Source: Alphaproteobacteria bacterium (GTDB taxonomy: Bacteria > Pseudomonadota > Alphaproteobacteria > Bin95). From it: 64,000 nt of DNA. The stretch spans positions 864,001 through 928,000 of the forward strand of contig CAXXWS020000003.1 of NCBI GenBank assembly GCA_963665325.3. Reading direction: 5' to 3'. How positions within the stretch are numbered: the stretch's first letter is position 1; each line of letters starts with the position of its first letter. Under the pieces are notes generated by a model. That model was given only the letters and a program-made list of their open reading frames with translations, was not told the origin of the DNA and ran no database searches. Shown here one piece after another: positions 2,965 to 35,808 of the stretch. Made by a program: the position numbers and the translations under genes.

Positions 2965-2981
2965 ACGGGCCTTGCCGGAAA

Positions 2982-18066: not shown

Positions 18067-19221
18067 CTACCCCACCATCTCGGCGATCCGGCTGGCAATA
18101 CGGTTGGCGGCGGACTTGACCGGGTCGTTGGCAAGATGGGCGTAGCGCGCCGTTGTCTGCACTTGCGTGTGGCCGAGCAGCTTCCCGATCATCGGAAGCC
18201 CTTCGCCGACCAGCAGTCCTCCACTGGCAAAGCTGTGTCGAAGGTCATGAATTCGCACATCGTCGAGCCCGGCCCGAGCCCGGATGCGCCGCCAGGGGTG
18301 TTGCAGGTCCGTCAGATGGCTGTCGGGCTTGCGCCCGGCGATCACCCACGGATTCCCCTCCTTCCGGTTGATTCCGCGCAGCACCGCGACGGCCGGATCG
18401 CCAAGATGCACCGTCTTGGCCCCCGACTTGCTGTCGGGTAGCCGCAATTCGCCCGCCTCCAGGTCGATATGCTCCCATCGCACCTTCTGGACCTCCGAGA
18501 GCCGGCAGCCCGTCAGCATCAGCAGCCGGATCGCCGCGATGGCGGCAGGCGTCTCCGAGCCGTCCCGGCCGATTTCCTTCAGGGTTTCTCCAAGGCGCCG
18601 GTACTCCTCGTCCGACAGGAACCGCTCCCGCTTCTCCTCGCGAAACCGCTTCACATGGCGGCACGGGTTCGATCCGTCCGGGCGCAGGCCCCAGACTTCG
18701 GCCATGTTGAACATCTTCGAGAGCACCCCGAGCGTCCGGTTGGCCTGGTAGGGGGTTTCCCGCATGCCGTGATGCAGCGCCGCAATGTCCTTGCGCTGAA
18801 TGTCGGGAACGCGGAGCTGGCCGATCCTGGGATCTATGAACAGTGTCACCGATCGGCGGTATTCCGCCGCCGTGCTCGGCTTGCAATGCGACGGCACATA
18901 TTCTTCCAGGAACCGCGTGCCCAGTTCCCGCATGGTCGGCGCGTTGGCATTGGCCCCGCCGCGCGCCGCCGGGTCCTTGCCCGCCCGTGCATCGGACATG
19001 ATCTCCGCCGCCCGGGTGCGCGCGTCGGCCGGCGTGACCGCGCCGTGGGGTCCGATAGTGACCTTGATCGCCCGTCCGCGGAAGCGCGTCTTGACGATAT
19101 AGACCTTGCGGCCGGAGGGATGGATGCGGATGCCGAAGCCCTTGAGATCGTCATCCCAGACAACGCGCTCGCGCTCCTGGGGATCGAGCGCGTCGACGGT
19201 TCTCTTGGTGATTTTGGCCAT
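18067..19221 (-). CDS. tyrosine integrase with N-terminal arm-binding domain
   Basis: KITKRTVDAL..VWDDDLKGFG; LTGCRLSE (R), HDLRHS, LLGH, TTARY. Adjacent to a tRNA fragment. Confidence 0.93.
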   Translation of the reverse strand: MAKITKRTVDALDPQERERVVWDDDLKGFGIRIHPSGRKVYIVKTRFRGRAIKVTIGPHGAVTPADARTRAAEIMSDARAGKDPAARGGANANAPTMRELGTRFLEEYVPSHCKPSTAAEYRRSVTLFIDPRIGQLRVPDIQRKDIAALHHGMRETPYQANRTLGVLSKMFNMAEVWGLRPDGSNPCRHVKRFREEKRERFLSDEEYRRLGETLKEIGRDGSETPAAIAAIRLLMLTGCRLSEVQKVRWEHIDLEAGELRLPDSKSGAKTVHLGDPAVAVLRGINRKEGNPWVIAGRKPDSHLTDLQHPWRRIRARAGLDDVRIHDLRHSFASGGLLVGEGLPMIGKLLGHTQVQTTARYAHLANDPVKSAANRIASRIAEMVG

Positions 19222-19389: not shown

Positions 19390-19434
19390 CTCATAACCTG
19401 AAGGTCGTAGGTTCAAATCCTACCCCCGCTACCA
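19390..19434 (+). other. 3' half of tRNA-Met(CAT), att site (not an intact tRNA)
   Basis: CTCATAACCTGAAGGTCGTAGGTTCAAATCCTACCCCCGCTACCA = anticodon loop, T arm and acceptor 3' strand. The 5' half is absent upstream. Confidence 0.88.
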
Positions 19435-21079
19435 CCGAGACCGACATTCCGCCTCGCGGGGTGTCGGTTCCGGTCCCTTTCCTTCCCGTCCCGCTCCCGG
19501 CCCATTCGAGGATGGTGCCGAGGTCGCCATGCAGCGCGGCGTGCAGCTCGCCGCGCTTCTCGCCGGGGGTGAGCACGATGCGCTCGATCAGCCCCCTTAT
19601 GGCCTCCGCCGCCTCGTCGCGATCGCGCGGGTCGGCTAGCGCCTCGGCGAGCCGCTCCACCTTGCGCCGGTAGATGTCCGCGATCTTCGGGTGGATGTCG
19701 GGCATGTCGGCCGGGACGGTGGATAGCCGCTCCTCGATCTCGTCCTGGCGGGCCTCAAGCTCGCGCATGCGGTCCATCATGCCCCGCGCATAGCCGCCGT
19801 CCTCGATCACCGCGACCATGGCCTTGATCTTCTTCTCTATGTCCGCAAACTCCCTGCGGTCCGTCGCGCCCGATGCGCGGCGCTCGCGGTTGAGGCGGTT
19901 GGTCTCCTCGGCATACGCCTTCATCGCCTCGGCGGCGGCCTCGGGCGCCATCAGCTTCTCCCTGAGCCCCGCCATGACCCGCTCCTCGATCTCGACGCGC
20001 CGGATGCCCCTGCCGTTGGCGCAAGAACCCGTCATGACGTGGTTGGAGCAGCCGTAGCGGTCCTGGCCGCGCTTGGCGTAGGAACCGCCGCACACGCCGC
20101 ATTCGAGCAGGCCCGACAGCAGGTAGCGGGGCCGGTGGGTGCTGTTGAGCCGGTTGGCATGGGCCGCGCGCGTCGCCGCGATGACGGTGGCGTATTTCTC
20201 GGAGATTTCCCCCTGCCGGGCCTTCGCCGCCTGCCACAGCGCGTCGTCCACGATACGAAGCTCGGGAACCTCGGCGATGATCCATTCCTCCGGCGGGTTG
20301 AGCCGCGCGACCCGCTTGCCGGTGTCCGGGTTCTTCATGAAGCGCTGCCGGTTCCACACCAGCCGGCCGATATAGAGCTCGTTGTTGAGAAGCCCGGTTC
20401 CCCGCTTGGCATGACCGCGCAGGACGGAATCGCTCCACAGCTTCCCCTTGGGGCCGGGGATGCCGTCCTCGTTGAGACGCCGCGCGATCGCGCGCGGGCT
20501 GGTCCCCTGGGCGAACTCCCGGAAGATGCGCCGCACGATCTCCGCCTCGGCCTCGTCGATGCTGCGCTCGCCCCGGACCGGCTCGCCGGCGGCGTCGTGC
20601 AGCTTCACCACGTCGTAGCCGTAGCAGATGCCGCCGCCCGACTTGCCGGCCTCGACCCGGCCGCGAAGGCCCCGGTGTGTCTTGGCCGCGAGGTCCTTCA
20701 GGAACAGCGCGTTCATGGTGCCCTTGAGGCCGACGTGAAGCTCGTTGATCTCGCCTTCCGAGAGCGTGACGATCATCACCCCCGCGAACCGCAGATGCTT
20801 GTAGAGCACCGCCACGTCGGCCTGGTCGCGGCTCACCCTGTCGAGCGCCTCCGCGACCACGATCTCGAACGCACCCCGGCGCGCGTCCTCAAGCAGTGCC
20901 TGGACGCCGGGGCGCAGGATCACGCTCGCGCCCGAGACGGCGGAGTCCTTGTAGGTTCCCGTGAGCTTCCAGCCTTCGCGTTCGGCAAGCTCGCGGCAGA
21001 TACGGAACTGGTCCTCGATGGAGGCCGCCCGCTGCTGGTCGGACGAGTAACGGGCGTAGAGCGCGCAGCGCAGGGTCAT
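19391..21079 (-). CDS. large serine recombinase (integrase)
   Basis: CALYARYSS (catalytic Ser), EALDRVSRDQAD, recombinase domain, LLSGLLECGVCGG zinc ribbon, coiled coil. Confidence 0.95.
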   Translation of the reverse strand: MTLRCALYARYSSDQQRAASIEDQFRICRELAEREGWKLTGTYKDSAVSGASVILRPGVQALLEDARRGAFEIVVAEALDRVSRDQADVAVLYKHLRFAGVMIVTLSEGEINELHVGLKGTMNALFLKDLAAKTHRGLRGRVEAGKSGGGICYGYDVVKLHDAAGEPVRGERSIDEAEAEIVRRIFREFAQGTSPRAIARRLNEDGIPGPKGKLWSDSVLRGHAKRGTGLLNNELYIGRLVWNRQRFMKNPDTGKRVARLNPPEEWIIAEVPELRIVDDALWQAAKARQGEISEKYATVIAATRAAHANRLNSTHRPRYLLSGLLECGVCGGSYAKRGQDRYGCSNHVMTGSCANGRGIRRVEIEERVMAGLREKLMAPEAAAEAMKAYAEETNRLNRERRASGATDRREFADIEKKIKAMVAVIEDGGYARGMMDRMRELEARQDEIEERLSTVPADMPDIHPKIADIYRRKVERLAEALADPRDRDEAAEAIRGLIERIVLTPGEKRGELHAALHGDLGTILEWAGSGTGRKGTGTDTPRGGMSVSVVAGVGFEPTTFRL

Positions 21080-21092
21080 GGTCTCGGGTCTC

Positions 21093-21317
21093 CTATCGGT
21101 CGTGCGCCTCCTTCTCCGGCGCATTGTCGTTGGCGGCTTCCGGCCGGGCGAATTGCTCGCGCGCGATCTGGCGCCCGAGCAGCCGGGCGAGGCGCATCAC
21201 CGCGTCCTCGATCCGCGCTTCCGGCCCGCCGTTGTCGTTGGCGGCCGGGCCGTGCACTGGCGCCCGCTCTCGGCCGTTCCCGTCTCTTCGCATCGCCTCC
21301 GCCTTCCCGGATACCAT
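21093..21317 (-). CDS. small protein upstream of the recombinase (candidate directionality factor)
   Basis: AANDN..RLARLLGRQIAREQF..AANDN, ending just before the recombinase start. Function is inference. Confidence 0.45.
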   Translation of the reverse strand: MVSGKAEAMRRDGNGRERAPVHGPAANDNGGPEARIEDAVMRLARLLGRQIAREQFARPEAANDNAPEKEAHDR

Positions 21318-21465
21318 GACCCTGGAAGGGAGATTTGAACCTGCGGGCAAGCCTTGTCAAACGGCGCATTGGGGGATTTCCTGCATGGAATCAATGCCTT
21401 GTCCGCACAAGGCACGCCCTGGCACGCTGTGGCCGCGCGTGGCTACGATGAAAAAAATTTCGCAC

Positions 21466-21894
21466 TCATCGCGTTTCCGCGTAATCGGCCAGCGTCAGGA
21501 TGGACTCGCCGTGCTCGGTCAGCGTCACGGAATTCGCGAATCGACGGTCTGCCGTCAGCATGACCGCGCCGATGCGATGGGCGAGCGCGAGATACACGCA
21601 ATCGTAAATCGGACGGTCGAGCGCCAGCGCCAGACGCACGGCGTCGGCGGAGACCAGTTCATCGGCGCCCCAGCGCACCGGCATATCCGGCACGTCCGCC
21701 AAGAGGATGCCCGCAGCGCGGCGCTCTATCTCGCCCGTCCGGGCTTTGCGCCAGATTGCATTGGCGACCTCGGACGCCATCAGGCGCGGCGCGTGAAGGT
21801 CGTGGCCGCTCGTCGCCAGTTCCTCCGCAACATCCGTTTCTTCCTCGGCGACCAGCCACTTGACCGCCACGCTCGCATCGACCACGAAGCGCAT
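21466..21894 (-). CDS. vapC: PIN-domain VapC toxin
   Basis: MRFVVDASVAVKW..SEVANAIW..YDCVYLALA..LTADRRF. Confidence 0.9.
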   Translation of the reverse strand: MRFVVDASVAVKWLVAEEETDVAEELATSGHDLHAPRLMASEVANAIWRKARTGEIERRAAGILLADVPDMPVRWGADELVSADAVRLALALDRPIYDCVYLALAHRIGAVMLTADRRFANSVTLTEHGESILTLADYAETR

Positions 21895-22154
21895 CAGAAG
21901 TCGTCGCGATGGCCGTGGTCGCGGTCCTCGCGGATCAGCACTTCCGCCGGGGTCTGCTTGCGTCCTTCGGTCAGGGGACGCAGCCGCTTCATGGTTTCCC
22001 GGAACGCGGCGCGCTTCGCCGCCATGTCGTCGTCGGCCGCGCATTGCAGGATGTGGCGCGCTTCGCCCTCCAGGGAGCGGTTGTTCTGCGCTGCACGCTG
22101 CTTGAGGCGGTCCACCACGTCATCGTCGAGCCGCCGCACATTGATCGTCACCAT
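21894..22154 (-). CDS. FitA-like ribbon-helix-helix antitoxin
   Basis: INVRRLDDDVVDRLKQRAAQNNRSLEGEARHIL; TGATG coupling to vapC. Confidence 0.88.
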   Translation of the reverse strand: MVTINVRRLDDDVVDRLKQRAAQNNRSLEGEARHILQCAADDDMAAKRAAFRETMKRLRPLTEGRKQTPAEVLIREDRDHGHRDDF

Positions 22155-22277
22155 GGGTTCGCCTCCAACCGTCGGTTATCAAACTGTTATCAGGTTGTCG
22201 CGGGACATGCAAGCCCCGGCGGGTAGGACACTGGGCGACATTTGCGGCCACGGGCGGACAGCGGCGGACGCAGGTAT

Positions 22278-22292
22278 GTTCGTCCCTTGTTC
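22278..22292. promoter_or_regulatory. alphaproteobacterial LexA box candidate
   Basis: GTTC-GTCCCTT-GTTC (GTTC-N7-GTTC), 80 bp upstream of the relaxase ATG. Confidence 0.5.
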
Positions 22293-22371
22293 TGCGCTGT
22301 CGGAGCGCATATCTGGCAGGGATGGATCGGCAGGAATCCGCTCATTTCGAGTCCATCGCGAGGCTGCCGCG

Positions 22372-25300
22372 ATGGTAGCGTCCATCGGCAAGATCGCTTC
22401 GCCGTCGCAGGGCGTGGGCTATTTCGAGAAGGACGGCTACTACGCCAGGGACGACGGGGCGCACCGCGAGGCCAGCGCCTGGGCCGGTAAGGGCGCGGCG
22501 GCGCTGGGCCTCTCTGGGCCGGTCGATCCCGAGCGCTTCCGGTCGGTGCTCGAAGGCGAGGTTCCGGGCGGCCGCCGTCTCGGGCGCAGGGAGATCGACG
22601 GCGCCATCGCGCACCGGCCCGGCCGCGACGTGACCCTGAGCGCGCCCAAGTCGGTCTCGCTGATGGCGATGGTGGGCGGCGACGAGCGCATCGTCGAGGC
22701 GCACGACAAGGCGGTGACGGCGACGCTGGGCTGGATCGAGGCGAACGCCGTCGAGACCCGGATGCGCGACCCCGCGACCGGGGCGATGGTCCGCGCCGGA
22801 GGCCAGAAGACGGTCGCGGCAACCTTCCGCCATGACACTTCCAGGAACCTGGATCCCCAGCTCCACACGCATGCCGTCGTCGCCAACATGGTCCAGGGCG
22901 AGGACGGCAAGTGGCGGACGATGGTCGATGACGGCCTGTTCAAGGGCAAGATGGCCATCGGGGCGATCTACCGGGCGGAACTGGCGCAGGGGCTGAAGGG
23001 GCTCGGCTACGGCATCGAGAAGACCCATGCCGACGGGCGGTTCGAGATCGAGGGCGTCCCGCGCGAAGTCATCGACGCCTATTCCACGCGCCGCGCCGAG
23101 ATCGAGGCGGCGATGGCCGAGCGCGGCATGGGGGAGTCGAAGGACAATCCCCATCTGGCGGCGCGGGCGGCGCTGATGACGCGGGCGGCCAAGCGGGACA
23201 TCGACCGGGACGAGCTCGGCCGCTCATGGCAGCGCCAGGCGAAGGGGCTCGGGTTCTCCGCAAGCAAGGTCCGCGCCCAGGCCCGCAAGGCGGAGCGGGG
23301 CCTGCTCGGCCCGGACCTGTTCGCGGGTCCAGGCTATGCGGCGGGCGACGCGGCGGCCTGGGCGGTGGCGCACCTTGCCGAACGCCAGTCGGTGTTCGGC
23401 CATGCCGACCTGCTGGCGGCGACGCTCGCCCGCGAGCCGGGCGCGGTCACCGTCGATGCGGCGGAGCGCGCCATCGGGACCCTCGAACGCGACGGATCGC
23501 TCCACGCCGCGCGCGGCCTCGACCATGGCCGGCACTGGACGACGGACGCGGCGATGGCGCGGGAATCCGAGACCATCGCGCTGATGCGCGCGGGCCAGGG
23601 GGCGGAGAAGACCGTCATGCGACGCTGGGTGGCGGAGACGAAGCTGCACCGGGGCCGGCTCAACGAGGGCCAGAAAGAGGCGGTCAAGACGATCCTCGCC
23701 AGCACGGATCGCGTCGTCGCGGTCCAGGGCTATGCCGGCACGGGCAAGACGACGATGCTGAAGCGCCTGCGGGCGCTGGCCGCCAGCCAGGGCTACCGCA
23801 CAATCGGGCTCGCGCCCTCGGCCTCGGCGGCGAAGACGCTTCAGAATGAATCCGGCATTCAATCCGAGACCCTGCAACGCTACCTCGCGCGCCATGACGG
23901 GATTGCCCACGGGCGCGGCACGGCGGCGGGGTTGCGCAAGCTCCGCGCCGCCAACGCGAAGACGATGCTGGTGGTGGACGAGTCCTCGCTCGCCTCAAGC
24001 GAGCAAATGAAGAATCTCCTGCGCATTGCGACGACGCTGCGCCTGCCCCGCGTGGTGCTGGTCGGCGACGAGAAGCAGCTCGGCGCGGTCGAGGCCGGGA
24101 AGCCGTTTGAGCAACTGAAGGCCGCCGGGATGACCACGACGGTGATGGACGACATCGTTCGCCAGCGCGACGCCGAGCTGAAGGCGGCGGTCCGGGCGAG
24201 CCTGACCGGCGACGTGAAGACCGCGTTCAAGAAGCTCGGCGACAACATCCGGCAGGTCGAGTACGGCGATCTCGGCACCGAGACCGCGCGGCACTGGCTG
24301 AACCTGCCGCATGAACAGCGCGCGGCGACGGGGGTGATCGCCCCGACGCGGGCGCTGCGCGACGAAATCAACGCCACGATCCGGGAAGAGCTGATCGCCG
24401 AAGGCGCGATCTCCGGCCCCGCCCGGCAGGGCGAGAAGCTGGTGCCGCGCGACCTCACCCGCGCACAGATGGCCCGCGCGTCCAACTACACCATCGGCGA
24501 TACGGTGATATTCACCCGCCCCTACAAGACGCTCGGGGTGGACAAGGGCGACGAGCGGCGGGTCGCCGGCATCGATCGGCGCTGGGGCGTGCTGCGGCTT
24601 GAGGACGCGAAGGGCGACAGGACGCCGTGGCGGCCGGAACGCATCGCCGCCGCCAAGGGCGGGGTCGAGGTCTATCGCGGCGAGGCGATGGAGCTTCGCC
24701 GGGGCGACCGGGTGCGCTTCACGCGCAACGATCCCGCCTCCGGGCTCACCAACGGCGAGACCGCGACGGTGGAAGCCGTCGGCCGGGACGGGGTTCGCTT
24801 CCGTCTGGAAAACGGTTCGCTGGCCACGCTCCGGCAGCACGACCCGCAGCTCCGGCATATCGACCGCGCCTTCGCGGCGACGGTGCATGCGTTCCAGGGG
24901 CGCACGGTGGACCGGATCGTCGCGGCGATGCCCGTCGGCAACCCGAAGCTGACCGACCAGCGCGCCTTCTATGTCGCGATCTCGCGGGCGCGCGATGCCG
25001 CCCGGCTCGTCACGGACGATGCCCACAAGCTCGCCGACCAGCTCGAACGGGCGACCGGCGAGCGTCTCGCGGCGCTCGATGCGACGGCGAAACAGGCCGC
25101 CTGGGAGACCGTGTTCGGGCGGGACCGCGCCGATGAGCGGGGCGGCGATCATCTGACACGCGCTTCTGACGCGATGGATCGCGGGGCGGAAGTCGCCCGC
25201 GACGGGCAGGACGGGCATGGGCGCGAGCGGCAATTGGGTCGCGGAACGGGCCGCGAAGTCCGCCGCGCGCGCGAGCGCGACCATCGAATCGCGCGCGAAA

Positions 25301-25491
25301 CCGGCCGGGACCGCGACGGAAAATCGCCCGCGCGCTCCACGGATCGCGAGCGAAGCGGGAAGGAATCGGCCGGCAAGGCCCCCGGCATCGACCGTGGCGG
25401 CGATGGCCGGCAGGCTGTTCCCGGCGAATCCGAACTCGAAAAGGCCGCCGGCGCGAAGCAGAAATCGCGCGACTTCGACCTCGGCATGTAG
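22372..25491 (+). CDS. mobF: MobF (TrwC/TraI-type) relaxase-helicase
   Basis: N-terminal Y..DGYY, DVTLSAPKSVS, HDTSRNLDPQLHTH (HUH), GYAGTGKT, VVDES, HAFQGRT, YVAISR, and a ..DFDLGM tail. Confidence 0.93.
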   Translation: MVASIGKIASPSQGVGYFEKDGYYARDDGAHREASAWAGKGAAALGLSGPVDPERFRSVLEGEVPGGRRLGRREIDGAIAHRPGRDVTLSAPKSVSLMAMVGGDERIVEAHDKAVTATLGWIEANAVETRMRDPATGAMVRAGGQKTVAATFRHDTSRNLDPQLHTHAVVANMVQGEDGKWRTMVDDGLFKGKMAIGAIYRAELAQGLKGLGYGIEKTHADGRFEIEGVPREVIDAYSTRRAEIEAAMAERGMGESKDNPHLAARAALMTRAAKRDIDRDELGRSWQRQAKGLGFSASKVRAQARKAERGLLGPDLFAGPGYAAGDAAAWAVAHLAERQSVFGHADLLAATLAREPGAVTVDAAERAIGTLERDGSLHAARGLDHGRHWTTDAAMARESETIALMRAGQGAEKTVMRRWVAETKLHRGRLNEGQKEAVKTILASTDRVVAVQGYAGTGKTTMLKRLRALAASQGYRTIGLAPSASAAKTLQNESGIQSETLQRYLARHDGIAHGRGTAAGLRKLRAANAKTMLVVDESSLASSEQMKNLLRIATTLRLPRVVLVGDEKQLGAVEAGKPFEQLKAAGMTTTVMDDIVRQRDAELKAAVRASLTGDVKTAFKKLGDNIRQVEYGDLGTETARHWLNLPHEQRAATGVIAPTRALRDEINATIREELIAEGAISGPARQGEKLVPRDLTRAQMARASNYTIGDTVIFTRPYKTLGVDKGDERRVAGIDRRWGVLRLEDAKGDRTPWRPERIAAAKGGVEVYRGEAMELRRGDRVRFTRNDPASGLTNGETATVEAVGRDGVRFRLENGSLATLRQHDPQLRHIDRAFAATVHAFQGRTVDRIVAAMPVGNPKLTDQRAFYVAISRARDAARLVTDDAHKLADQLERATGERLAALDATAKQAAWETVFGRDRADERGGDHLTRASDAMDRGAEVARDGQDGHGRERQLGRGTGREVRRARERDHRIARETGRDRDGKSPARSTDRERSGKESAGKAPGIDRGGDGRQAVPGESELEKAAGAKQKSRDFDLGM

Positions 25492-26286
25492 CTGCCCCTC
25501 CCTCTTTCCGGCCAAATCAGCGCCCTGCGCAAAGGAAAAATCCGTCGCAGCGCGCGCCCATCATGGTCGCCGATTTGCCCGAAACCGGACAGCGGATGCC
25601 AGGAGCGGCCGCGCGGCGACGGGGCCGCGCTCCCCTGTCCTGGGGCGGCCAGCGAGCGCCTCGGCGGTCTTGGGAAAGTCTGTATGCTCCGGGCGCTACG
25701 GCGTGGATTGCTCCAGCACGCCGCCGGGGCCGTCGCGCGCCCAGGGTTCTCCGGAGAATTGCCCCGCTCGACCCTAAGCCCTTGAAATACTGCGATGTGT
25801 TTGAAGCGTGTTGCGACGCAATGCGCCCTGGCACAAATCGGGGCTCGCGCTTTTCCAAGGGGGTTTTCGGAGCATACATGGGGCCACAGGGGGACAGGGC
25901 GTAGCCCATCGTGGCCAAGCGTAGCCGGAACAGGACAGGCATCACCGATGCGGCAGGTGTGAGAACCTTAACGGGCGCCAGCCCGTCCATGCGGACTCGG
26001 CGTCCAGCCGCTATGTCGGGGAAGCTCGCAAGGGCGTTTTCCATGGTCAAGCCGCCGCGGCGCATGAGGGGTGCGGACCCACGTCATGAACGCATCGCGC
26101 GCCGGACAGGGCCTGCGCACGCTTACCGGCGGCGTCAATCGTGCCAGGCGGCACGGCACGGTCGATGACGGCGGCGCTGTCGATGTCGGCAGCCCCGACC
26201 GGGTCCGGCGTAAGTCAAGAACAGATGTCGAGAACGAATGTCGAGAACGAATTGACGCCTCACCCCGGGCAGTGCTTCAATACTCG

Positions 26287-26441
26287 TTGCAAACCTTCAG
26301 GCAGTCCCGCTGAGTCGGGTCTCCTGCTGAATAGAACAGCCTGATACGCGACGTGGGGTAGCTCCCTGCGTTTGGCGAATAGGCAGGGTCTCTCAATCTG
26401 TCTGAGGGTTTGCAAAGGCCCGGCACCAGTCCCGTGCCGGG
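26287..26441 (+). ncRNA. candidate structured leader RNA
   Basis: 18-bp closing helix (26287-26304 with 26398-26415, two G-U pairs) enclosing three hairpins, followed by an 8-bp hairpin at 26419-26441. Confidence 0.45.
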
Positions 26442-26468
26442 ATGCAATGCCAACCACGGGAGCGACAA

Positions 26469-27518
26469 ATGACATACTCGGATAGAGGATTGGCGCGAAC
26501 GGCGACTCTGGCCGTTGTCACCGCATTCGCTTTGCTCACCCTAGCTGCCTGTGGCGGCGGCGGTGGAGGTGGAGGCAGAGGCAGCCCCACCTCGATGATG
26601 CCACCCGGCGGTGGTGGCGGGGGGCAGATGACGGACGGCGGCACATCATCTGGCAGCAATGCGACCTACACCGTGAGCGCGGACAGCAGCACTTTCGGTT
26701 CGACCCCGGTCACGGTATCGCCCGACGCCATCACTATTGCGAATCAGACGATCAGGTTCAACTCTGCGTCGCAGGTAGGAGCCCAAGTCGGAATTTACCG
26801 CGCTTTTGATTCGCCGGGGACAACTAGTGGGCCGGCGACGGAGGTTCACTACTTCGGGCAGCACGATGGATACAGTTATATTCAGTTCGGCTCTTGGGCC
26901 AAGGGAGTCGTCAGTCCCAACCCAGGGTTCAGAATCGGAGACGACTTTGGTGCTTTTGTTGCTCCCTACGCAGACTCGGGATTGACCCCCGTCTCGAATT
27001 TGCCCGCAACTGGAACTGCTACTTGGCTAGGTCAATATACCGGCTATGTCGACAGGCAAGGGGTTGGAGTCTCGCACGTGGTCGGAAGAGCAGCAATGGT
27101 GGCGAATTTTGGCCACTCAGTATTCGGCGTTGACGACGGCAGCATGGCGGTTGAGCTCTTGCCACCCGATCCGCGTCGCTCATCCTTTGCCGCACCGCCA
27201 CCAGATCTTTGTGTATTCACTTGTGTTCCCACGGAGTACGGTGATCGCGTGTTGATGATTGGCCCAATCGACGGGAATACGTTTGAGAGCGATGTCACCG
27301 CCACACGCACCCTCGCGGGACAAACATTCCCGCGAGGCGATGCCATCTCAGTGGCCAACACGCAGTCGTTCAGCAGTCTATATTCACACGGCGGCGCAAA
27401 CAGCGGAGGATTCAACGGCGGATTCTACGGAAATCGAGGCGGTGAGGCTGGCGGAACCTATCAATTCACGATTGGAACTACGAAGGCCGCAGGCTCATTC
27501 GGCGGTAAACTTCAGTGA
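26469..27518 (+). CDS. surface lipoprotein with TbpB-like C-terminal beta-barrel
   Basis: Lipobox LAAC then a Gly linker; PATGTATWLGQYTG and GGFYGNRGGEAGG..GSFGGK barrel motifs. Confidence 0.75.
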   Translation: MTYSDRGLARTATLAVVTAFALLTLAACGGGGGGGGRGSPTSMMPPGGGGGGQMTDGGTSSGSNATYTVSADSSTFGSTPVTVSPDAITIANQTIRFNSASQVGAQVGIYRAFDSPGTTSGPATEVHYFGQHDGYSYIQFGSWAKGVVSPNPGFRIGDDFGAFVAPYADSGLTPVSNLPATGTATWLGQYTGYVDRQGVGVSHVVGRAAMVANFGHSVFGVDDGSMAVELLPPDPRRSSFAAPPPDLCVFTCVPTEYGDRVLMIGPIDGNTFESDVTATRTLAGQTFPRGDAISVANTQSFSSLYSHGGANSGGFNGGFYGNRGGEAGGTYQFTIGTTKAAGSFGGKLQ

Positions 27519-27707
27519 GCGGATGTGGCGAGAAATAGTGAGACGCTACATGCTACGGCGCGGTGTTCACGCGAGGTAGTATGAATCTATGAATCGGGGA
27601 TTGGTTCCCGAGAGTGCTGTCGGGGTGCCGCCTAACCGACATCCCGTTCAGCACCGCGCAGTTTGGCAGCACGGGACTACAGACAAATGGGTAATCCTAG
27701 ATTTTCA

Positions 27708-28038
27708 CTAACCGCGTTTGCGCGCGTCGTCGGCATCCCAGCGGCTGCGCCCCAGAAGCGCCTGCATACGCCACGGGCGCGACAGACCCGCCTGCTCCGC
27801 CATCATCCAGCCCGTCTTTCGCTCGATCCCCGACAGAAGACCGTCCAGAAACGCGCTCCCCGTCTCTCGAAGCTCACGGCGCCCAAACAAGGGACCCAGA
27901 CGCGACTTCCACAAACCCAACTCCCGCTCCCACTCCAGAAGCGAGCCCGACCAATCCGCTACACTCATCGTGCCTTCTCTCCGCTTTCACTTCGCGGAGT
28001 GAGTCACAAATTGCAACAAACCACAACTGTAGTACTAG
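27708..28038 (-). pseudogene. IS701 family left end with truncated transposase
   Basis: CTAGTACTACAGTTG end; FLDGLLSGIERKTGWMMAEQAG..MQALLGRSRWDAD; only 86 aa. Confidence 0.8.
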
Positions 28039-28049
28039 GGAGATCCCCT

Positions 28050-29822
28050 ATGCACGTTTGCCGACCGGCCGCGCTTTCCGCGTGCCTACTGCTGCTTCTC
28101 ACCGCCTGCGGAGGCGGAGGTGGTGCTGGGGGTTCGGCAGTTGGACCGGGGCCGGTTGAACCGTTGGCAGGTGTTTCTTTGCGCTTGCCCTCGGGCCACG
28201 GCCTGATGGCAGGCTCGGTCTCGGTCGCGCCGGGCGGCTCGGCCGAGCACGGCAACGTGGTCGTTTCGTGCCCGGCGAGCGGACAGGCGTGCGTGGTGAC
28301 CGTCGCGGCGGACGGCACGGCGAGTTACGACCGGACGGGCGGCATGCCCGGCGTCATGGCGGCGTATGGAGCATGGGCGCTGCCACCCGGCCACGGGCTT
28401 TCGGCGGGTGCGCTCCGGGTCGCGCCGGGCGGCTCGGCCGAGCACGGCAACGTGGTCGTTTCGTGCCCGGCGAGCGGACAGGCGTGCGTGGTGACCGTCG
28501 CGGCGGACGGCACGGCAAGCTACGACCGCACCGGCGGTGTCATGGTGGCGGAACCAGTGCTGCGTGAGCCGTTCGACACGGTCTCCGTGAGACTTGCCAA
28601 AGAGACGGGCAACCCGACATCGGCGGAGCTCTTGTCCTATTTGAGTACGCAGCTCGGTGGCGGTCCGTGGTACGCCGGTTCGCAATACATGTGGTCGGAT
28701 ATTCCCGGTTTGGGTCGGTATTCTTCGCCCCCAATGGTGCGTATTGTACAAGGAGCCTCTGCCCACGAACGCGCGATGGCCCACCACGCCGTCGCACTTA
28801 TCAACCGGGAACTTCCCAACCAGTGGCACATTCAAATTGGGAGTGACGCGCCGACGCTGGGAGCAGTCTCGGCTGTCCCTGACGGAGAATTATACGTCGG
28901 TTTCTTGGCCGTCGCCGAATATGAACTCAGTGGCGGAGGAAGACCGGAGTCTGAAGGATTAGCCTTTCCTGACCGTGTGTCCGAATGGGATGAACGACAG
29001 CAGCGCCATGAAGTTAAGGGGATGCGGGCTGCTCAGGTTTGGATGCGACCGGAAACTTGGTTTCGGTCCAATCAACGTTCAGAAGGCAACATGATGTGGG
29101 TACTGGTGCATGAATTGATTCATGCACTGGGATTAGACGGCCATGTTCCTGAAGGCGAGCACCCGGGCTCAATTATGAACGACTGCTGCCAACAATCGAG
29201 TATTGAGCGCATACCTGAGATTGACGGCACCGCCTTGCGCGCTATCTACACCCGCTACGAGAACGGCACGGGGTCGGAAGACCTGTCGCCGGAAAGTCTC
29301 GGGCCGTGGGAGACCAGCTCTCTTAATCTGTCAGGCGAGCTTGACACCCCCGGCGGCACGGTCTCATTTGGCGTGAAGCACCGTAACGGTATCAGCGTTC
29401 CTTGGACGAGTGGGCAGGAGCCGAGCTCCGCGTTGGCAGACAACCGTTCAATTACGGGAACGGCGACTTGGAGCGGCGGACTTCTGGGTTTCACGCCCCA
29501 CCAACTATCAGTGGGCGGTAATGCGGAGATCAATGTGAACATGGGCACGATGAACGGAAGTGCCGACTTTACTGACCTCCAGCGATGGCCTGCCGGGCAG
29601 GCGCCGGGCGCGCTGGGAACTGGTTCTCAGTGGGGTGAAGGAAGCCTTGGCTACACAATCTCCGTCAGCGGCAATTTCCTTCGGAGCACTGGCGGCGACG
29701 CCGGAGTGGTTGCTGGAAACTTCTACGGGAGCGGTCATGAAGGCGTTGCAGGCTCGCTGGAGCGCAGCGACCTAACGGCGGTTTTCGGCGCGAAGCATCA
29801 GTCGACATCCGACGCTCTGTAA
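28050..29822 (+). CDS. surface lipoprotein: duplicated Cys-containing module + metzincin-like protease + TbpB-like barrel
   Basis: Lipobox LTAC-GGGGG; two 65-aa repeats; HELIHALGLDGH with SIMN Met-turn; C-terminal GNFYGSGHEGVAG..VFGAK. Confidence 0.75.
   Translation: MHVCRPAALSACLLLLLTACGGGGGAGGSAVGPGPVEPLAGVSLRLPSGHGLMAGSVSVAPGGSAEHGNVVVSCPASGQACVVTVAADGTASYDRTGGMPGVMAAYGAWALPPGHGLSAGALRVAPGGSAEHGNVVVSCPASGQACVVTVAADGTASYDRTGGVMVAEPVLREPFDTVSVRLAKETGNPTSAELLSYLSTQLGGGPWYAGSQYMWSDIPGLGRYSSPPMVRIVQGASAHERAMAHHAVALINRELPNQWHIQIGSDAPTLGAVSAVPDGELYVGFLAVAEYELSGGGRPESEGLAFPDRVSEWDERQQRHEVKGMRAAQVWMRPETWFRSNQRSEGNMMWVLVHELIHALGLDGHVPEGEHPGSIMNDCCQQSSIERIPEIDGTALRAIYTRYENGTGSEDLSPESLGPWETSSLNLSGELDTPGGTVSFGVKHRNGISVPWTSGQEPSSALADNRSITGTATWSGGLLGFTPHQLSVGGNAEINVNMGTMNGSADFTDLQRWPAGQAPGALGTGSQWGEGSLGYTISVSGNFLRSTGGDAGVVAGNFYGSGHEGVAGSLERSDLTAVFGAKHQSTSDAL
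28194..28540 (+). repeat. 195-bp internal direct repeat (2 copies)
   Basis: GHGL..VAPGGSAEHGNVVVSCPASGQACVVTVAADGTASYDRTGG starting at 28194 and 28389; near-identical core. Confidence 0.9.
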
Positions 29823-30112
29823 CTCTGATGGTATTCGTCAATCCATCCTCGTCGGGGTTCGGCGGATCTTCGTCGTGGACGACGCCTGCAACGGCTTACA
29901 TGACCGGGCAGAATCAATCGAATTCCAAGGCGAACTGGTATACACGACCTACCACGCGTGTTGTGGCCCCCAAGGAAGGCGGATGGCTACCGTAAGCTGC
30001 TGCGAGGGTGTGGCACAAACGCGTTATACTGCGCCCTTGTGTGCAGAACTCAGACATTGACAACAAGTAAGTGTCGGTTTCGGCTGTAGCGAGCCCCCGC
30101 AACCAAAAGAAG

Positions 30113-30145
30113 CCCCTGAAAACATTGATGTTTTCAGGGGTTTTT
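30113..30145 (+). terminator. rho-independent terminator behind the tRNA 3' end
   Basis: CCCCTGAAAACAT-TG-ATGTTTTCAGGGG followed by TTTTT. Confidence 0.7.
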
Positions 30146-30326
30146 CATTTTCGGACAAGCACATTTGGCAGTTTGGCAAACTATTGGCAAACAACACTAG
30201 GTCGTGTACCCATAAGGTGTTTCATGATTTGCGAAGATGTGATTCAAGCTCCCAACCTCAGGGAGCTTGGAGATGGGCCGCTACGATCTGACGGACTGTA
30301 AGCGGTTCGAACGCGGCACGTGGATT

Positions 30327-31970
30327 TCAGCTTGACGAGCTGACGAAGTTCCACGGGAGCAAGTCGTCGATCCGGTCGTTGGGATGGCCGGCCGCGATGG
30401 CTTCGAGGGTGGCCTTGAGCCAGGCGTAGGGCTCGACCCCGTTCAACTTGGCGGTCTGGGTGAGTGAAGCGATCCGGCCCCAGGCGACCGCGCCTTCGTC
30501 GTGACCCGCGAAGAGTGCGTTTTTCCTTGTAAGGGCAATCGGCCGGGCGAGATTCTCGACGGCATTGCTGTCCATCTCGACACGGCCGTCGGCAAGGAAG
30601 AGCCGGAGACCGTCCCAGTGGCGGGCGATATAGGCGAGCTTCTCGCCGAGCCGGGACTTGGGCGAGACGCGGGCGCGCTGCTGCTTCAGCCAGTCGCCGA
30701 AGGCCTCGACCAGCGGCGCGGCGCGCGTTTGTCGTTCGCTCAGACGCCGTTCGGGCGGGCTACCGCGGATGTCCGCCTCGATGGCGTAGAGTTCGGCGAT
30801 GCGGCGCAGGCCCTCGGCCGCGATCTCGGAGCCGCTGCTGTCGTAGATTTCGCGGAGCCGGCGCCTGGCATGGCTCCAGCAATATGCCAGCCGCAGCGGC
30901 GCGCCGCCCTTGCGGCCCCGGCCGGTCAGCCGGTTGTATCCGGCATAGCCGTCGACCTGCAGGATGCCGTCGAAGCCGTCGAGGAACTTTTCAGCATATT
31001 CGCCGCCGCGCCCGGGGGCATAGAAGTACACCACGCCCGGCGGATCGGGTCCGCCCCAGGCGCGGTCATCGCGGGCCAGCGCCCATAGCCAGCCGGTCTT
31101 CGTCCTGCCGCGGCCCGGATCGAGCACCGGCGCGCGGGTCTCGTCCATGAAGAGTTTGGAAGAGCGTTTCAGGTGCCAGGCCAACCGGTCGGCCACTGGC
31201 TTCAGATGGAACGAGGCCCTGCCGACCCAGCCGGCCAGCGTCGAGCGGTCCAGATCGAGCCCCGAGCGGGCGTAGATCTGCACCTGCCGATGCAGCGGGC
31301 AATGATCCAGGTATTTCGAGACGAGCACATGGGTGATCGTGCCTTCGGTCGGCAGCGCGCCCTCGATCGGCCAAGCTGGCGCCGGCGCCTGGGTGACGCC
31401 TTGCTCGCAAGCCCGGCAGGCGTATTTCGGCCGCACCGTGACGATCACCCGAAGCTGCGCCGGCACGATGTCCAGGCGCTCGCTCCGATCCTCGCCGATC
31501 TGCACCATCTCCCCGCAGCCGCAGGGACAGAGCGTGCTCTCCGGCTCGATCACCTGCTCGACCCGCTCCAGATGCTCCGGCAGATGGCCGATATTGCGCT
31601 CGGCACGAGGCCGCTTCGACGAGCGCGGCGACGACGGATCGCCAGCCGCAGCCTCCGCTTCCACCTCCGCAGACGCCCCCTCAAGGTCCTCGAAAGCCAG
31701 TTGGCGCTCGTCCGCCGTCAACCTCTCCGACCTCTTGCCATACAGAAGGCGGATCAGTTCCAGGTTCAGGTGTTCGAGACGGCGGATACGCTCCGCCTGC
31801 GTCCCGTTGCGGTCTGTCAGAACCTCGTTCTCGCCTGCAAGGCAGGCCTTCTCTTCCGCCAGCGTCTCGTTCTCGGCGCGAAGCGTCTCCAGCGCCGCGA
31901 TCGCCTGCACCGCGGCGTTACGCTGTTCGGGCGTCAGCGTTCCGAGGTCGATCTCCGCAAGGGCCGGCAT
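30327..31970 (-). CDS. tnpC: IS66 TnpC transposase
   Basis: LYGKRSER, CPCGCG, FMDET, CWSHARR, LLPWN. Confidence 0.92.
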   Translation of the reverse strand: MPALAEIDLGTLTPEQRNAAVQAIAALETLRAENETLAEEKACLAGENEVLTDRNGTQAERIRRLEHLNLELIRLLYGKRSERLTADERQLAFEDLEGASAEVEAEAAAGDPSSPRSSKRPRAERNIGHLPEHLERVEQVIEPESTLCPCGCGEMVQIGEDRSERLDIVPAQLRVIVTVRPKYACRACEQGVTQAPAPAWPIEGALPTEGTITHVLVSKYLDHCPLHRQVQIYARSGLDLDRSTLAGWVGRASFHLKPVADRLAWHLKRSSKLFMDETRAPVLDPGRGRTKTGWLWALARDDRAWGGPDPPGVVYFYAPGRGGEYAEKFLDGFDGILQVDGYAGYNRLTGRGRKGGAPLRLAYCWSHARRRLREIYDSSGSEIAAEGLRRIAELYAIEADIRGSPPERRLSERQTRAAPLVEAFGDWLKQQRARVSPKSRLGEKLAYIARHWDGLRLFLADGRVEMDSNAVENLARPIALTRKNALFAGHDEGAVAWGRIASLTQTAKLNGVEPYAWLKATLEAIAAGHPNDRIDDLLPWNFVSSSS

Positions 31971-32192
31971 GGCCAGTCTGGTAGCACAGTGTCGGGATAC
32001 AGCACGCCCCGGTCCGCCCGGTGAGTCATTCGGCCTCAGCCGGGCGACGCGCCGACAGCGCCCGCACACGCCGCCAGTCCAGCCCGGCGAACAGCGCCTC
32101 GAACTGCGCATGGCTCAGCGACATCACCCCGTCGCGGATCGCTGGCCACACAAAGCCCTGGTCTTCCAGGCGCTTGTAGACCATCACCAGCC

Positions 32193-33714
32193 CTTTCAAT
32201 TACCCACATCTTGATGTTTACGCGGGAAGTTCTTGCGTCGAGGGAATCGGCCGTGATTCCTTGTCGTGCACCGAATCGGGAGCGAACAGGTGCGCAATCA
32301 GGATGAGCGATGGTTTGAAGAAGAGCTTGCAGGCTGCCAGCTTGGTGACGGGCGACTGGACCGTCGGCTTCGCCAACTGGTTGAGCGGATGGAAGCCGGG
32401 TTCGGAGAAAGCATCCCGCTTGCCTGCCAGGACTGGGCCGGGACAAAGGCGGCATATCGCTTCTTCTCCAACGAGCGGGTGAGCGAAGAGGAAATTCTTC
32501 GAGGCCATTTCAACGCAACGCGGCGCCGATTTGGCGCCAGCTGCGGCCCAATCCTCGTTCTTCACGACACGACGGAGTTTTCCTGGAAGCGTAAGCGTCC
32601 CGAAGCAGTGGGCTTCACCACGAAGGTGGGCGGCGGCAAAGACATGCTCGGTCGCGAGAGAATGCACACGCTCTGTGGGTTACTGATGCATTCGAGCTTG
32701 GCGGTGTCGACGGACGGGCTGCCGCTGGGAATGGCTGCGGTCAAGTTCTGGACCAGGAAGAAGTTCAAGGATAAGGCAGCACTCAAGAGGAAGGTCAATT
32801 CAACGCGCGTGCCGATCGAAGGCAAGGAGAGCATGCGTTGGCTGGAGACCCTGCGCCACTCCACTGAATTGTTGGACGACCCTGCGCGCTGTATTCACAT
32901 TTGCGACCGCGAAGGCGATATCTGGGAGTTGTTCTGCCTCGCTCGGGAACTCGATACCCACTTTCTCATCAGGCGCTTTTCCGACAGATATGCCGAGGAC
33001 GGCTCCCGTACAGTGGCGTCGGTCATGGCGGAGGCGAAGGTTCGCGGGCTGCACCGGATCGCGGTTCGTGACGACAAGGGCAGGCTGGGCTCCACTCAGG
33101 TCGAACTTTACTACCAGCACATGACCATCCGGCCGCCGCTCGGCAAACGAAAGCGCTATCCGTCGCTCACGCTTACGGTGTTGCACGCCCGAGAGCCGGA
33201 AGAGCCGGTCGGACGACCCCGCATCGACTGGAAGCTGATCACCGACCTGCCGGTCGACAGCCACGACGACGCGGTGGAGAAGCTCCGCTGGTATGCCATG
33301 CGCTGGAAGATCGAGGTCTTCCACAAGATCCTGAAATCGGGCTGCCGCGCCGAACAGGCTCGCCTGCGGACCGCCGAGAGGCTCGTCAGGCTGATCGCGG
33401 TCTTCTGCATTTTGAGCTGGCGCGTCTTCTGGTTGACGATGCTCAACCGGACCGAACCGGACCTTGAACCGGGCCTCGTGCTCACCGAAATCGAAATCAA
33501 GCTGCTCGATCACCTGATCCCTGACCGGGGTCCCGGCCCATCGACGCCGAAAACCCTGTCCGACTACCTCACGAAGATCGCGCGGCTCGGCGGCTATCTC
33601 GCCCGAACCAAGGACCCGCCGCCTGGAAACATCGTCTTGTGGCGCGGCCTCGCCCGCCTCAATGACATTACCCTCGGCGCAACTGCGCAAATCGACGTTG
33701 TGGGTAATTGAAAG
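32193..33714 (+). mobile_element. complete IS4 family (IS50-like) element
   Basis: IRs CTTTCAATTACCCACA / TGTGGGTAATTGAAAG. 9-bp TSD TCACCAGCC at 32184-32192 and 33715-33723. Confidence 0.95.
32266..33711 (+). CDS. IS4/Tn5-like transposase
   Basis: LGDGRLDRR, KAAYRFFSN, HDTT, CDREGD, YAMRWKIE (YREK), ARLGG..PPG. Confidence 0.93.
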   Translation: MHRIGSEQVRNQDERWFEEELAGCQLGDGRLDRRLRQLVERMEAGFGESIPLACQDWAGTKAAYRFFSNERVSEEEILRGHFNATRRRFGASCGPILVLHDTTEFSWKRKRPEAVGFTTKVGGGKDMLGRERMHTLCGLLMHSSLAVSTDGLPLGMAAVKFWTRKKFKDKAALKRKVNSTRVPIEGKESMRWLETLRHSTELLDDPARCIHICDREGDIWELFCLARELDTHFLIRRFSDRYAEDGSRTVASVMAEAKVRGLHRIAVRDDKGRLGSTQVELYYQHMTIRPPLGKRKRYPSLTLTVLHAREPEEPVGRPRIDWKLITDLPVDSHDDAVEKLRWYAMRWKIEVFHKILKSGCRAEQARLRTAERLVRLIAVFCILSWRVFWLTMLNRTEPDLEPGLVLTEIEIKLLDHLIPDRGPGPSTPKTLSDYLTKIARLGGYLARTKDPPPGNIVLWRGLARLNDITLGATAQIDVVGN

Positions 33715-33906
33715 TCACCAGCCCGGTTCCGTCCCAGTAAACCAGCTTCAGCCTGTCAGCTCGTTTCGCACGGAACGCACAGACCGTTCCCGTGAACGGG
33801 TCCTTGCGCAATACGCTCTTCACATGCGCTACAAGGCCATCGTGTTGGCGGCGGAAGTCCACGGGCTTGGTCGCAACCATGATCCGAACCCGGTTCGACG
33901 GGAAGA

Positions 33907-34308
33907 TCATGCCGAGGCGTTCAACGCAGAGACGATCTCCGCGATCCGGCAAGCCGGCGTCGCCGCGTCCAGACGAAGCGTCACCCGGTCCTGGATCACT
34001 TCCAGGCGCTCGCCGCCCGACGCCGGAACCCGACCCTCGTCCTGACGCAAGACCACCGGAGCAAAGTCCATCTCGTCCCCGAGCGCCGGCAAGACCAGAA
34101 GGCCCTTCCGGGCCTGGCGGCGCCATTCCGACAGCTGGTTCGAGTTGAGCTCGTAACGACGTGCTACCCCTGCGACCGTCGCCCCTTCCTCCAAAGTCTC
34201 GGCAACAATCCGCGCTTTCACCGAAGCCGGCCAGCGACGGCGAAAGCCGCTACGTGCCGGCAACACTTCAACCTTAGCGTTGGTGAGAATCTCTGCTGAG
34301 GGCTCCAA
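33907..34308 (-). CDS. tnpA: IS66 TnpA
   Basis: RRRWPASVKARIVAETL..VARRYELNSNQLSEWRR. Confidence 0.85.
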   Translation of the reverse strand: MEPSAEILTNAKVEVLPARSGFRRRWPASVKARIVAETLEEGATVAGVARRYELNSNQLSEWRRQARKGLLVLPALGDEMDFAPVVLRQDEGRVPASGGERLEVIQDRVTLRLDAATPACRIAEIVSALNASA

Positions 34309-35138: not shown

Positions 35139-35540
35139 TAGTGTCCGGTTGAGGCGGAGGAGTTTTGAGTAAAGGTGTTTGGTTTGAGGCTGTTATGGAT
35201 GATTTCGGGTGGTGTCGATTCTTGCCGGTCCGGCGGCTGCGTCCGGGGGCATTCGGACTGTGAGTTCCGGGACATGGTCCATGGTGGTCGTTTCCTGCGG
35301 ACGATGGATTTCCTGCCCTGGACCACATTCGAGCGGATTGTGGTCCGTTATCGGGGGAACCACCGTGTTCGAACCTTGCGGTGTGCGGAGCAGTATCGGC
35401 CATGGCGTTTGCACAACTGACCTGGCGGGAGAGCCTGCGCGACATCGAGACCTGTCTCGAGGCGCAAGCGGGCAAGCTCTACCACAGCGGGTCCCGAGGC
35501 CCGGTTCGGCGCTCGACCCTGGCGGACGCCAACGAACGCC
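35139..35540 (+). pseudogene. IS4 family (DUF4372-type) transposase 5' fragment, frameshifted
   Basis: MDFLPWTTFERIVVRY / MAFAQLTWRESLRDIETCL..RSTLADANE. Confidence 0.75.
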
Positions 35541-35778: not shown

Positions 35779-35808
35779 CACGCCACAGGGGAATGGGCTC
35801 GATCACCG

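Follow-up and report, generated by a model that had tools for sequence, protein, structure and literature searches.

A putative helper-dependent integrative mobilizable element at a tRNA-Met site, with its attachment site inside the integrase gene

We analysed a 64,000-nt stretch of contig CAXXWS020000003.1 (positions 864,001 to 928,000, forward strand) from the genome assembly GCA_963665325.3 of an alphaproteobacterium; this whole stretch is called the window, and all positions refer to it. A mobile element of 10.7 kb spans 19423–30100. Between its ends lie genes for a large serine integrase, a small open reading frame (ORF), a VapC/FitA toxin–antitoxin pair, a MobF relaxase-helicase and two lipoproteins, together with an IS701 remnant. 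The GC content is 0.70 in the backbone and 0.61 in the cargo, and the longest gene-free gap is shorter than 1 kb. We consider it probable that this is a helper-dependent integrative mobilizable element (IME).

For the Pfam scan, 56 ORFs were picked from the 168 gene-like ones of the window, 12 of them inside the element. A first-pass annotation made from the sequence alone had described a backbone of integrase, small ORF, FitA/VapC and MobF. This was borne out, with Pfam and NCBIfam matches to Resolvase, Recombinase and a Zn ribbon, to FitA RHH, to PIN and to TrwC with AAA_30. The same annotation had reported the absence of a coupling protein, a type IV secretion system (T4SS) and Rep, and none of them was detected among the 12 element ORFs scanned. 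ORFs 25517–26065, 25563–25904, 26071–26313 and 29875–30060 gave no Pfam match and were regarded as non-genes. For comparison, a species-genome scan with MobF yielded 124 relatives, of which the best 80 were retained as 78 loci, all from metagenome-assembled genomes. The coupling-protein-free MobF lineage to which the element belongs occurs in genomes labelled Alphaproteobacteria, Binatia, Acidobacteria and Thermodesulfobacteriota, and names such as Spongia_Bin9 and Poriferihabitaceae point to sponge symbionts as the source of several relatives.

Ends, tRNA-Met target and integrase tails

The following features define the ends of the element and its integrase.
19390–19434, + strand: initiator tRNA-Met 3′ half from the anticodon loop, matching the 3′ halves of ARAGORN tRNA-Met(CAT) genes that overlap related integrases in L079–L081
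19391–21079, − strand: large serine integrase, 562 aa (Pfam; PDB profile matches to the TP901-1 and SPbeta integrases)
19423–19447, + strand: left junction with central CC, 7-bp repeat and element-side arm, entirely within the integrase coding sequence
30050–30094, − strand: silent coding segment for the predicted circle-form integrase tail (14 residues and stop)
30069–30105, + strand: right junction with element-side arm, central CC, 7-bp repeat and displaced tRNA end AACCA

The two ends share the 7-bp repeat CCCCCGC (19423–19429 and 30094–30100), beyond which their identity does not extend. By itself this 7-mer is weak evidence, as the window holds 13 copies on both strands. The element-side arms (30071–30091 and 19427–19447) match as inverted repeats at 17 of 21 positions, and the attP that results from joining them is symmetric at 19 of 25 positions about the central CC (19423–24/30094–95), a score equalled by 1 of 200,000 random joins of window sequence. 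The arms were not among the 25 longest inverted pairs listed by the repeat finder. In the window, L001 and L023 alike, attP arms are symmetric at 19/24 positions and attB arms at 6–9/24. Core positions, arm coordinates and the imperfect inverted repeats of the first-pass annotation therefore stand; it overlooked the tRNA-Met target, the oriT, a structured leader (26305–26440) and the fact that attP falls within the gene for the integrase.

When reconstructed, the empty site corresponds to an initiator tRNA-Met 3′ half that runs from the anticodon loop (position 19390) up to ACCA (position 30105). The sequence TACCA at 19430–19434 is supplied by the element and takes the place of the displaced AACCA; therefore, the whole tRNA would be restored, presumably with the 1:72 mismatch of the initiator retained. 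Neither a whole tRNA nor an Rfam RNA family was found in the window. In all three plasmid loci scanned, related integrases overlap complete tRNA-Met(CAT) genes, which come after the tRNAs of rRNA operons and have a near-identical 3′ half. These loci come from Sphingobium, Haematobacter and Paracoccus replicons; no convincing right end was seen within 50 kb for the Sphingobium and Paracoccus elements.

Both junctions recur at an identical tRNA position in two relatives, L001 (15,067 bp) and L023 (13,367 bp, with a different gene order), which carry other cargo. In L048, an empty site was identical to the reconstruction at 47/47 nt. A stray right junction in this locus diverges directly after CCC, which brackets the crossover. 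The same backbone with different cargo in other genomes, and a related genome with the empty site, had both been named beforehand as ways to check the element, and both were found.

The integrase has the features of large serine integrases, with resolvase, recombinase and zinc-ribbon domains and a short attP whose inverted arms flank a central dinucleotide. All its Pfam domains precede the crossover. The gene reads through the left junction, and its last ten residues are tRNA antisense; the integrated form ends in VVAGVGFEPTTFRL, with a stop codon that is the antisense of the anticodon loop. Since attP falls within its coding sequence, the integrase has one tail in the integrated form and another in the circular form, and the swap alters only terminal residues (10 when integrated, 14 in the circle). 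At all four right junctions available (window, L001, L023 and L048) the predicted tail has 14 residues and stops at the same codon. Nucleotide identity across these junctions is 0.88 in the arm, 0.69 between arm and stop and 0.40 past the stop. Of the pairwise codon differences, 6 are synonymous and 16 non-synonymous ahead of the stop, compared with 1 and 35 beyond it. The pattern suggests selection on a tail that would exist only in the circle, with the qualification that n=4, that three of the junctions are close kin and that a DNA-binding site could conserve similarly.

Two plasmid copies (L085 and L086) have non-tRNA, attP-like tails. Among the 120 best homologues of the integrase (72–93% identical), 83 stop at the anticodon-derived stop, 4 are tRNA-like and run on, and 33 have different tails, which is consistent with off-target or attP-type junctions. 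The homologues P0075, P0041, P0044 and P0025 have tails that continue in frame into other genes, in P0075 into a DUF87 domain, which suggests that off-target integration creates gene fusions. With 7,976 passes among 8,000 scored candidates, the family is large, and in Sphingobium RAC03 a member adjoins an F-type T4SS. The structure model of the integrase has a pLDDT of 60.6, with the tail below 50, and does not resolve the tail. We found no account in the literature of a tail swap in this integrase family, although the TIGER 'regulated gene integrity' paper may cover cases of att within integrase genes; the word 'tRNA' is absent from the main text of PMC10083194.

Relaxase, oriT and candidate helpers

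Two features of the element relate to mobilization.
22372–25491, + strand: MobF (TrwC-type) relaxase-helicase, 1039 aa, catalytic motifs intact (NCBIfam MobF 282 bits, cut-off 100; relax_trwC 276, cut-off 145.5)
25939–25961, + strand: candidate oriT, a 5-bp hairpin followed by TGCGGCAGGTGT^G, with the predicted nick between 25960 and 25961

MobF combines a TrwC domain, the catalytic Tyr and HUH motifs and a fused SF1 helicase, as expected for MOBF, and its closest plasmid relatives are at most 40% identical. A relaxase-domain tree of 77 sequences, built by a quick maximum-likelihood method (L077 and L078 were excluded as too short), sets the window and 32 loci apart from 44 others with a support of 99. 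Among loci with at least 2.2 kb upstream, a coupling protein was found in 0 of 29 in the window's clade versus 29 of 42 in the sister clade; one representative of the coupling-protein cluster and one of each F-type T4SS cluster were verified by Pfam. We conclude that the lack of a coupling protein is a lineage trait and not recent decay. A second MobF group free of coupling proteins (L032, L035–L039, L041, L046, L047, L049, L071 and L077) has an HTH_17 gene and an unknown 260-aa gene preceding the relaxase.

The motif TGCGGCAGGTGT^G at 25949–25961 occurs once in the window (chance 0.04) and is identical at 10 of 13 positions to the F nic site TTTGCGTGGGGTGT^GGT, as that site is given in PMC2504302. 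Among the 26 clade loci with enough DNA, 21 have the candidate oriT 439–646 nt behind mobF, and no match occurred in 2.95 Mb of resampled sequence; four of the five loci that miss it have broken relaxases. The hairpin is fully paired in 22 distinct copies, with 19 two-sided changes. In the sister clade, the same nic motif is present on the same strand in 18/44 loci. In the sister clade, coupling proteins and F-type T4SS genes immediately precede the relaxases, which share an acidic-hydrophobic C-terminal end with those of the window's clade. We rejected an oriT upstream of mobF: 33 sequences showed only short, promoter-like conservation there, and the site downstream is the better fit. The leading region holds another conserved motif (AGCC..GGCG..TGAG; 26050–26070), which lies about 90 nt beyond the predicted nick and may be a single-strand initiation signal.

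Two loci that carry a coupling protein and an F-type T4SS share a chromosome with members of the window's clade. These are L073 on OZ220710.1 (with L003 and L014) and L055 on OZ241976.1 (with L013, L015 and L019). This co-residence makes MobF integrative and conjugative elements (ICEs) likely helpers.

Accessory genes, cargo and neighbouring islands

The remaining features are the following.
18067–19221, − strand: tyrosine integrase of the adjoining island, outside the element (Pfam Phage_integrase and Arm-DNA-bind_3)
21093–21293, − strand: small conserved ORF of 66–74 aa with an AANDN motif and one helix-like core (118 family representatives)
21320–21365, − strand: conserved promoter-like stretch (TTGACA; alignment of 13 loci)
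21466–21894, − strand: VapC-type PIN toxin (Pfam PIN)
21894–22154, − strand: FitA-like RHH antitoxin (Pfam FitA-like_RHH)
26305–26440, + strand: conserved structured leader before lipoprotein 1 (five more full copies: three in L010, one each in L016 and L039)
26469–27518, + strand: lipoprotein 1, 349 aa, with LAAC lipobox, Gly linker and TbpB_B_D barrel (Pfam TbpB_B_D 28.1 bits, cut-off 26; 40 homologues)
27708–27968, − strand: IS701-family transposase remnant (Pfam; NCBIfam E 1.9e-16)
28050–29822, + strand: lipoprotein 2, 590 aa, with LTAC lipobox, two 65-aa repeats, a metzincin domain with HELIHALGLDGH and an NHBA/TbpB-type barrel

The integrase was present in 9 of the 78 loci and the small ORF in 12, and all nine integrase-holding loci have both. 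The small ORF belongs to no Pfam or NCBIfam family, its ESM Atlas matches were to unnamed clusters only (score at most 0.90), and four of its motifs are absent from one supplement of PMC12286644. Its position makes it a candidate recombination directionality factor (RDF), the integrase-binding partner that large serine integrases require for excision. The promoter-like stretch upstream, which a sigma-70 scan did not pick up, contains a 12/14 copy of the tRNA-side att arm (21331–21344, − strand) in the putative promoter of the small ORF and integrase. This is the only other 12/14 match in the window and is kept in most of the 13 aligned loci; it may be an autoregulatory site. The toxin–antitoxin slot is variable, with HigBA, BrnTA, Gp49/HTH and Phd/PIN in L001, L009 and L065.

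Both lipoproteins carry a glycine linker. Lipoprotein 2 matches Pfam Peptidase_M10 with E 2.4e-4, which is below the cut-off. Its structure model (pLDDT 81) contains a barrel that aligns with NHBA (Z 15.7, rmsd 2.2, 139 residues aligned) and a metzincin domain that aligns with serralysin (Z 11.5, rmsd 3.2, 159 residues aligned) and MMP-2 (Z 11.4). The zinc motif residues H335, E336, H339, G342 and H346 are at least 90% conserved in 62 sequences, with one additional residue ahead of the third His. With both the HExxHxxGxxH motif and the metzincin fold present, lipoprotein 2 is a predicted zinc protease of the metzincin type with a TbpB-type barrel. Two 157-nt direct repeats (28186–28537; 89% identity) encode its 65-aa cysteine-containing repeat, which is found in many other listed homologue lipoproteins. 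The claim that the element carries only surface lipoproteins was right about the two lipoproteins but not about 'only', given the IS701 remnant and the protease domain. TbpB-type barrels are described as marking Slam/T11SS cargo (PMC8406197), so surface display is plausible, though an exporter of the host would be needed. The NCBIfam model slam_lipo gave 23 bits for lipoprotein 2 (cut-off 80), no match to the exporter domain DUF560 was found among the 56 window ORFs scanned, and no Slam gene was seen in the element.

The leader is about 135 nt long, has two GAATA loops and stands mostly ahead of genes for secreted or lipid-anchored proteins. Its other copies lie in L010 (3712–3851, 8307–8447 and 19873–20010), L016 (5329–5469) and L039 (20344–20473). 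Two-sided changes occur in 12 of 35 predicted pairs (six sequences). The copies in L010 and L039 are within ~2 kb of an IS1595 transposase; an IS1595 end was rejected as an explanation, as the leader is directed towards passenger genes and IS1595 is missing from the window. Rfam was negative, plasmid and phage collections gave no match, a covariance model retrieved merely its six training copies, and we found no account of the leader in the literature.

The cargo survey covered 25 clade loci with ORFs of at least 130 aa within 6 kb downstream of mobF. PADLOC defence-family matches (E 1e-10 or better) occurred in 11/25 loci versus Calx-beta adhesins in 4/25; these counts are rough, with ends unmapped in most loci and low-GC3 genes missed by the ORF caller (which shortened lipoprotein 1), and single PADLOC matches are not whole defence systems. 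Calx-beta adhesins are present in the closest relatives, L001, L007 and L021. Among the seven loci with integrase and small ORF whose cargo is in view, surface proteins occur in four (window, L001, L007 and L021), restriction-modification-like defence genes lie between the mapped ends of L023, and L009 and L048 carry neither. A lipoprotein-2 homologue is located near a clade relaxase in L010. The first-pass annotation had the element spreading surface-display genes rather than resistance genes. This holds for the closest relatives L001, L007 and L021 only and is overstated for the clade as a whole, in a survey that used no dedicated resistance library; because surface genes lead in the integrase subgroup but defence is commoner across the clade, the specialist claim is only partly supported. 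Loci L001 (20713–21440, split into two ORFs), L048 (11327–12055) and L060 have a DUF2285 (RovC_DNA-bd) regulator, at the right end in the first two. We take it to be FseA-like, resembling activators of ICE excision.

Defence genes (PglZ and a methylase) lie to the left of the element and insertion-sequence (IS) debris to the right (Pfam). The att site of the tyrosine integrase at 18067–19221 is the tRNA-Met 3′ half now occupied by the element, and L009 has the same gene at an equal 170-bp spacing from the serine integrase. According to PMC4383910, a tRNA fragment that starts at the anticodon loop is the hallmark of a tyrosine-integrase island. As the fragment here starts at that loop and the tyrosine integrase adjoins, the element is one member of a tandem array. 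The DNA methylase and PglZ genes at 154–4988 form a BREX-like defence cargo of the left-hand island. Past the tRNA end, a hairpin and TTGGCA repeats (30107–30200), common to L001 and L048, are probably the start of a further, decayed tyrosine-integrase island. They are followed at 30327–35830 by an IS66 broken by an IS4/Tn5-like transposase and then by IS5 and more IS remnants. At 46492–63108 the window encodes a 5,538-aa adhesin with Calx-beta, cadherin-like, SWM and FN3 repeats.

Interpretation and comparison with known systems

The element has its own integration module with att at both ends, an oriT and a relaxase, and no complete conjugation apparatus, in line with the IME definition (PMC5704250). 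With no coupling protein or T4SS on it, it is not an ICE. Sequence comparison establishes its ends, target, gene content, oriT conservation, empty site and cargo variation. The earlier reading as a minimal IME that needs a helper T4SS is thus well supported by the distribution of coupling proteins, the oriT, two end-mapped relatives and one empty site. Excision, the RDF role, the helper's identity, transfer, surface exposure and any function of the tail swap we infer as follows. The serine integrase would recombine the attP at the 3′ end of its gene with tRNA-Met(CAT) genes at their T-arm/acceptor end, and the crossover would fall at the central CC. Insertion would rebuild the tRNA end (..CCCCGC-TACCA) and give the integrase a tRNA-derived tail; excision, with the small upstream ORF as likely directionality factor, would restore the tRNA site and give the integrase its second, element-encoded tail. 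MobF would then nick the oriT behind its own gene, and the strand would leave with the cargo in front, using the coupling protein and F-type T4SS that a MobF ICE in the same cell provides. The toxin–antitoxin pair would guard the element against loss. The cargo is variable; here it would consist of two outer-surface lipoproteins, one a zinc protease, which would need a Slam/T11SS exporter of the host.

Several observations weigh against this explanation. The empty site comes from the L048 genome alone and not from this strain. The integrase accompanies few of the relaxase loci, so the modules recombine freely. Both cases of co-residence concern clade members without the serine integrase, the relaxase of L055 is split, and the window contains no helper. 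The relaxase tree comes from the quick method, and the hairpin count arose partly by construction, since hits were filtered for the hairpin, yet only one nearby clade hit (L075) lacked it. The window element also lacks the DUF2285 regulator of L001 and L048, has the IS701 remnant and sits among IS debris.

These last points would fit a copy that came in by the proposed route but has lost the ability to excise or transfer in this strain, as would its decayed neighbours and the frequent breakage of relatives (integrase lost in L021 and frameshifted in L023, L048 truncated). We nevertheless judge such stranding unlikely: all five ORFs of the backbone are intact, as are the oriT and the two att arms, and lipoprotein 2 falls into a 99%-identical cluster of five members whose genomic context is unseen. 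Also improbable, in our view, is the specialist vehicle for surface-display genes that the first-pass annotation had proposed. Surface proteins in four of the seven integrase loci, the homologue in L010 and the lateral movement of cadherin and fibronectin-III genes among sponge symbionts (PMC8163846) speak for it; the defence cargo between mapped ends in L023 and the excess, on rough counts, of defence matches over adhesins across the clade speak against it.

The moving unit might instead be a larger tandem array, to whose flanking tyrosine-integrase islands the element lends its oriT and relaxase. In all four metagenome-type cases with the integrase at tRNA-Met (window, L001, L009 and L023), only a displaced 3′ half of the tRNA is present. 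Three of them (window, L009 and L023) have a related tyrosine integrase alongside, and composite tandem IME arrays that excise in several ways have been described (PMC5704250). We rate this as quite unlikely, as the element has a complete att pair, cargo and gene order vary between the same ends, and an empty site exists; occasional co-transfer with the flanking islands may be compatible with the att and empty-site evidence. Least of all do we favour a role of MobF and oriT in rolling-circle maintenance of the circle or in site-specific recombination, with spread by, for example, transduction. The absence of a coupling protein or accessory relaxosome gene from the element speaks for this. Against it, the sister-clade relaxases are immediately preceded by coupling proteins and F-type T4SS genes and share the relaxase C-terminal end and, in 18/44 loci, the nic motif on the same strand. 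Taken together, a helper-dependent IME remains our preferred explanation.

IMEs of uncultured symbionts are poorly mapped. In PMC8163846, lateral transfer of adhesin, restriction, cadherin and fibronectin-III genes among sponge symbionts is described with no vehicle named; the exact ends, the empty site, the oriT and the candidate helpers of this element make the vehicle behind such gene flow testable. We tentatively propose, as a possible but doubtful extension, that the integrase switches by its own recombination between two C-termini that are both under selection. In the integrated state the tail would be antisense to the tRNA, and in the circle it would be the one that the element encodes. 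The integrase would ride a coupling-protein-free MobF lineage that spreads adhesin, surface-protease and defence genes among sponge-type symbionts, and this lineage would be a concrete vehicle for such genes. The integrated tail would end at the TGA supplied by any CAT anticodon loop. If true, the switch would tune stability or direction, and the integrase would report its own integration state. The annotated integrase is the integrated form, which differs from the form that carries out integration. Together with the orphan small ORF, the tail swap would offer a simple system for studying directionality. As the integrase targets a conserved tRNA-Met end that it restores, the family is also a candidate integration tool for Alphaproteobacteria.

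The C-terminus of the phage Mx8 integrase likewise changes on integration; that enzyme is a tyrosine recombinase, whereas the one described here is a serine enzyme. As in Mx8 and in the suicidal integrases of SSV1 and pTN3 described in PMC8371274, the recombination site lies inside the integrase gene and integration alters the protein. The SSV types, however, are tyrosine recombinases that are split into inactive halves, whereas the serine integrase keeps all its domains. PMC4383910 mentions integrase genes (Mx8, SSV) that extend across attP. The tRNA-restoring islands of Islander in the same paper resemble our element in an attP that carries and restores the tRNA end, in displaced fragments that mark the ends and in tandem arrays. 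That 2014 paper states that serine integrases were not known to target tRNA genes; the later Mesorhizobium paper PMC8627217 lists one such site.

As in F and R388 (PMC2504302), a relaxase-helicase with Y..YY and HUH motifs is combined with a hairpin followed by TGCG....GTGT^G; unlike those systems, the element has no coupling protein or accessory gene. Its lipoproteins resemble the Slam/T11SS cargo TbpB, NHBA and fHbp (PMC8406197) in lipobox, linker and C-terminal eight-stranded barrel, and lipoprotein 2 differs from these in the metzincin domain ahead of the barrel.

The closest known systems are the MOBF IMEs of Mesorhizobium (PMC8627217), which combine a serine integrase at tRNA-Met(b) with a MOBF relaxase and no coupling protein. 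They are described there as 5.8 kb and larger and without resistance genes, and they include the adhesin-bearing IMEMlR88B. The att core matches the one in Table S7 of that paper at 11 of 13 nt, and judged by this core, not by the proteins, the two integrases would belong to one family. The Mesorhizobium IMEs have Ti-like traACD, with traA and traC separated by the oriT and traA followed by an RDF gene. In contrast, the window element has a lone TrwC-type MobF with the oriT behind it, a different small ORF and a toxin–antitoxin slot; its TraA_Ti score is 182 bits (cut-off 590), and FitA lies upstream and the oriT downstream of mobF. As the Mesorhizobium elements are published, the element type is already known, and without a function for the tail swap the element presented here is a well-resolved member of it.

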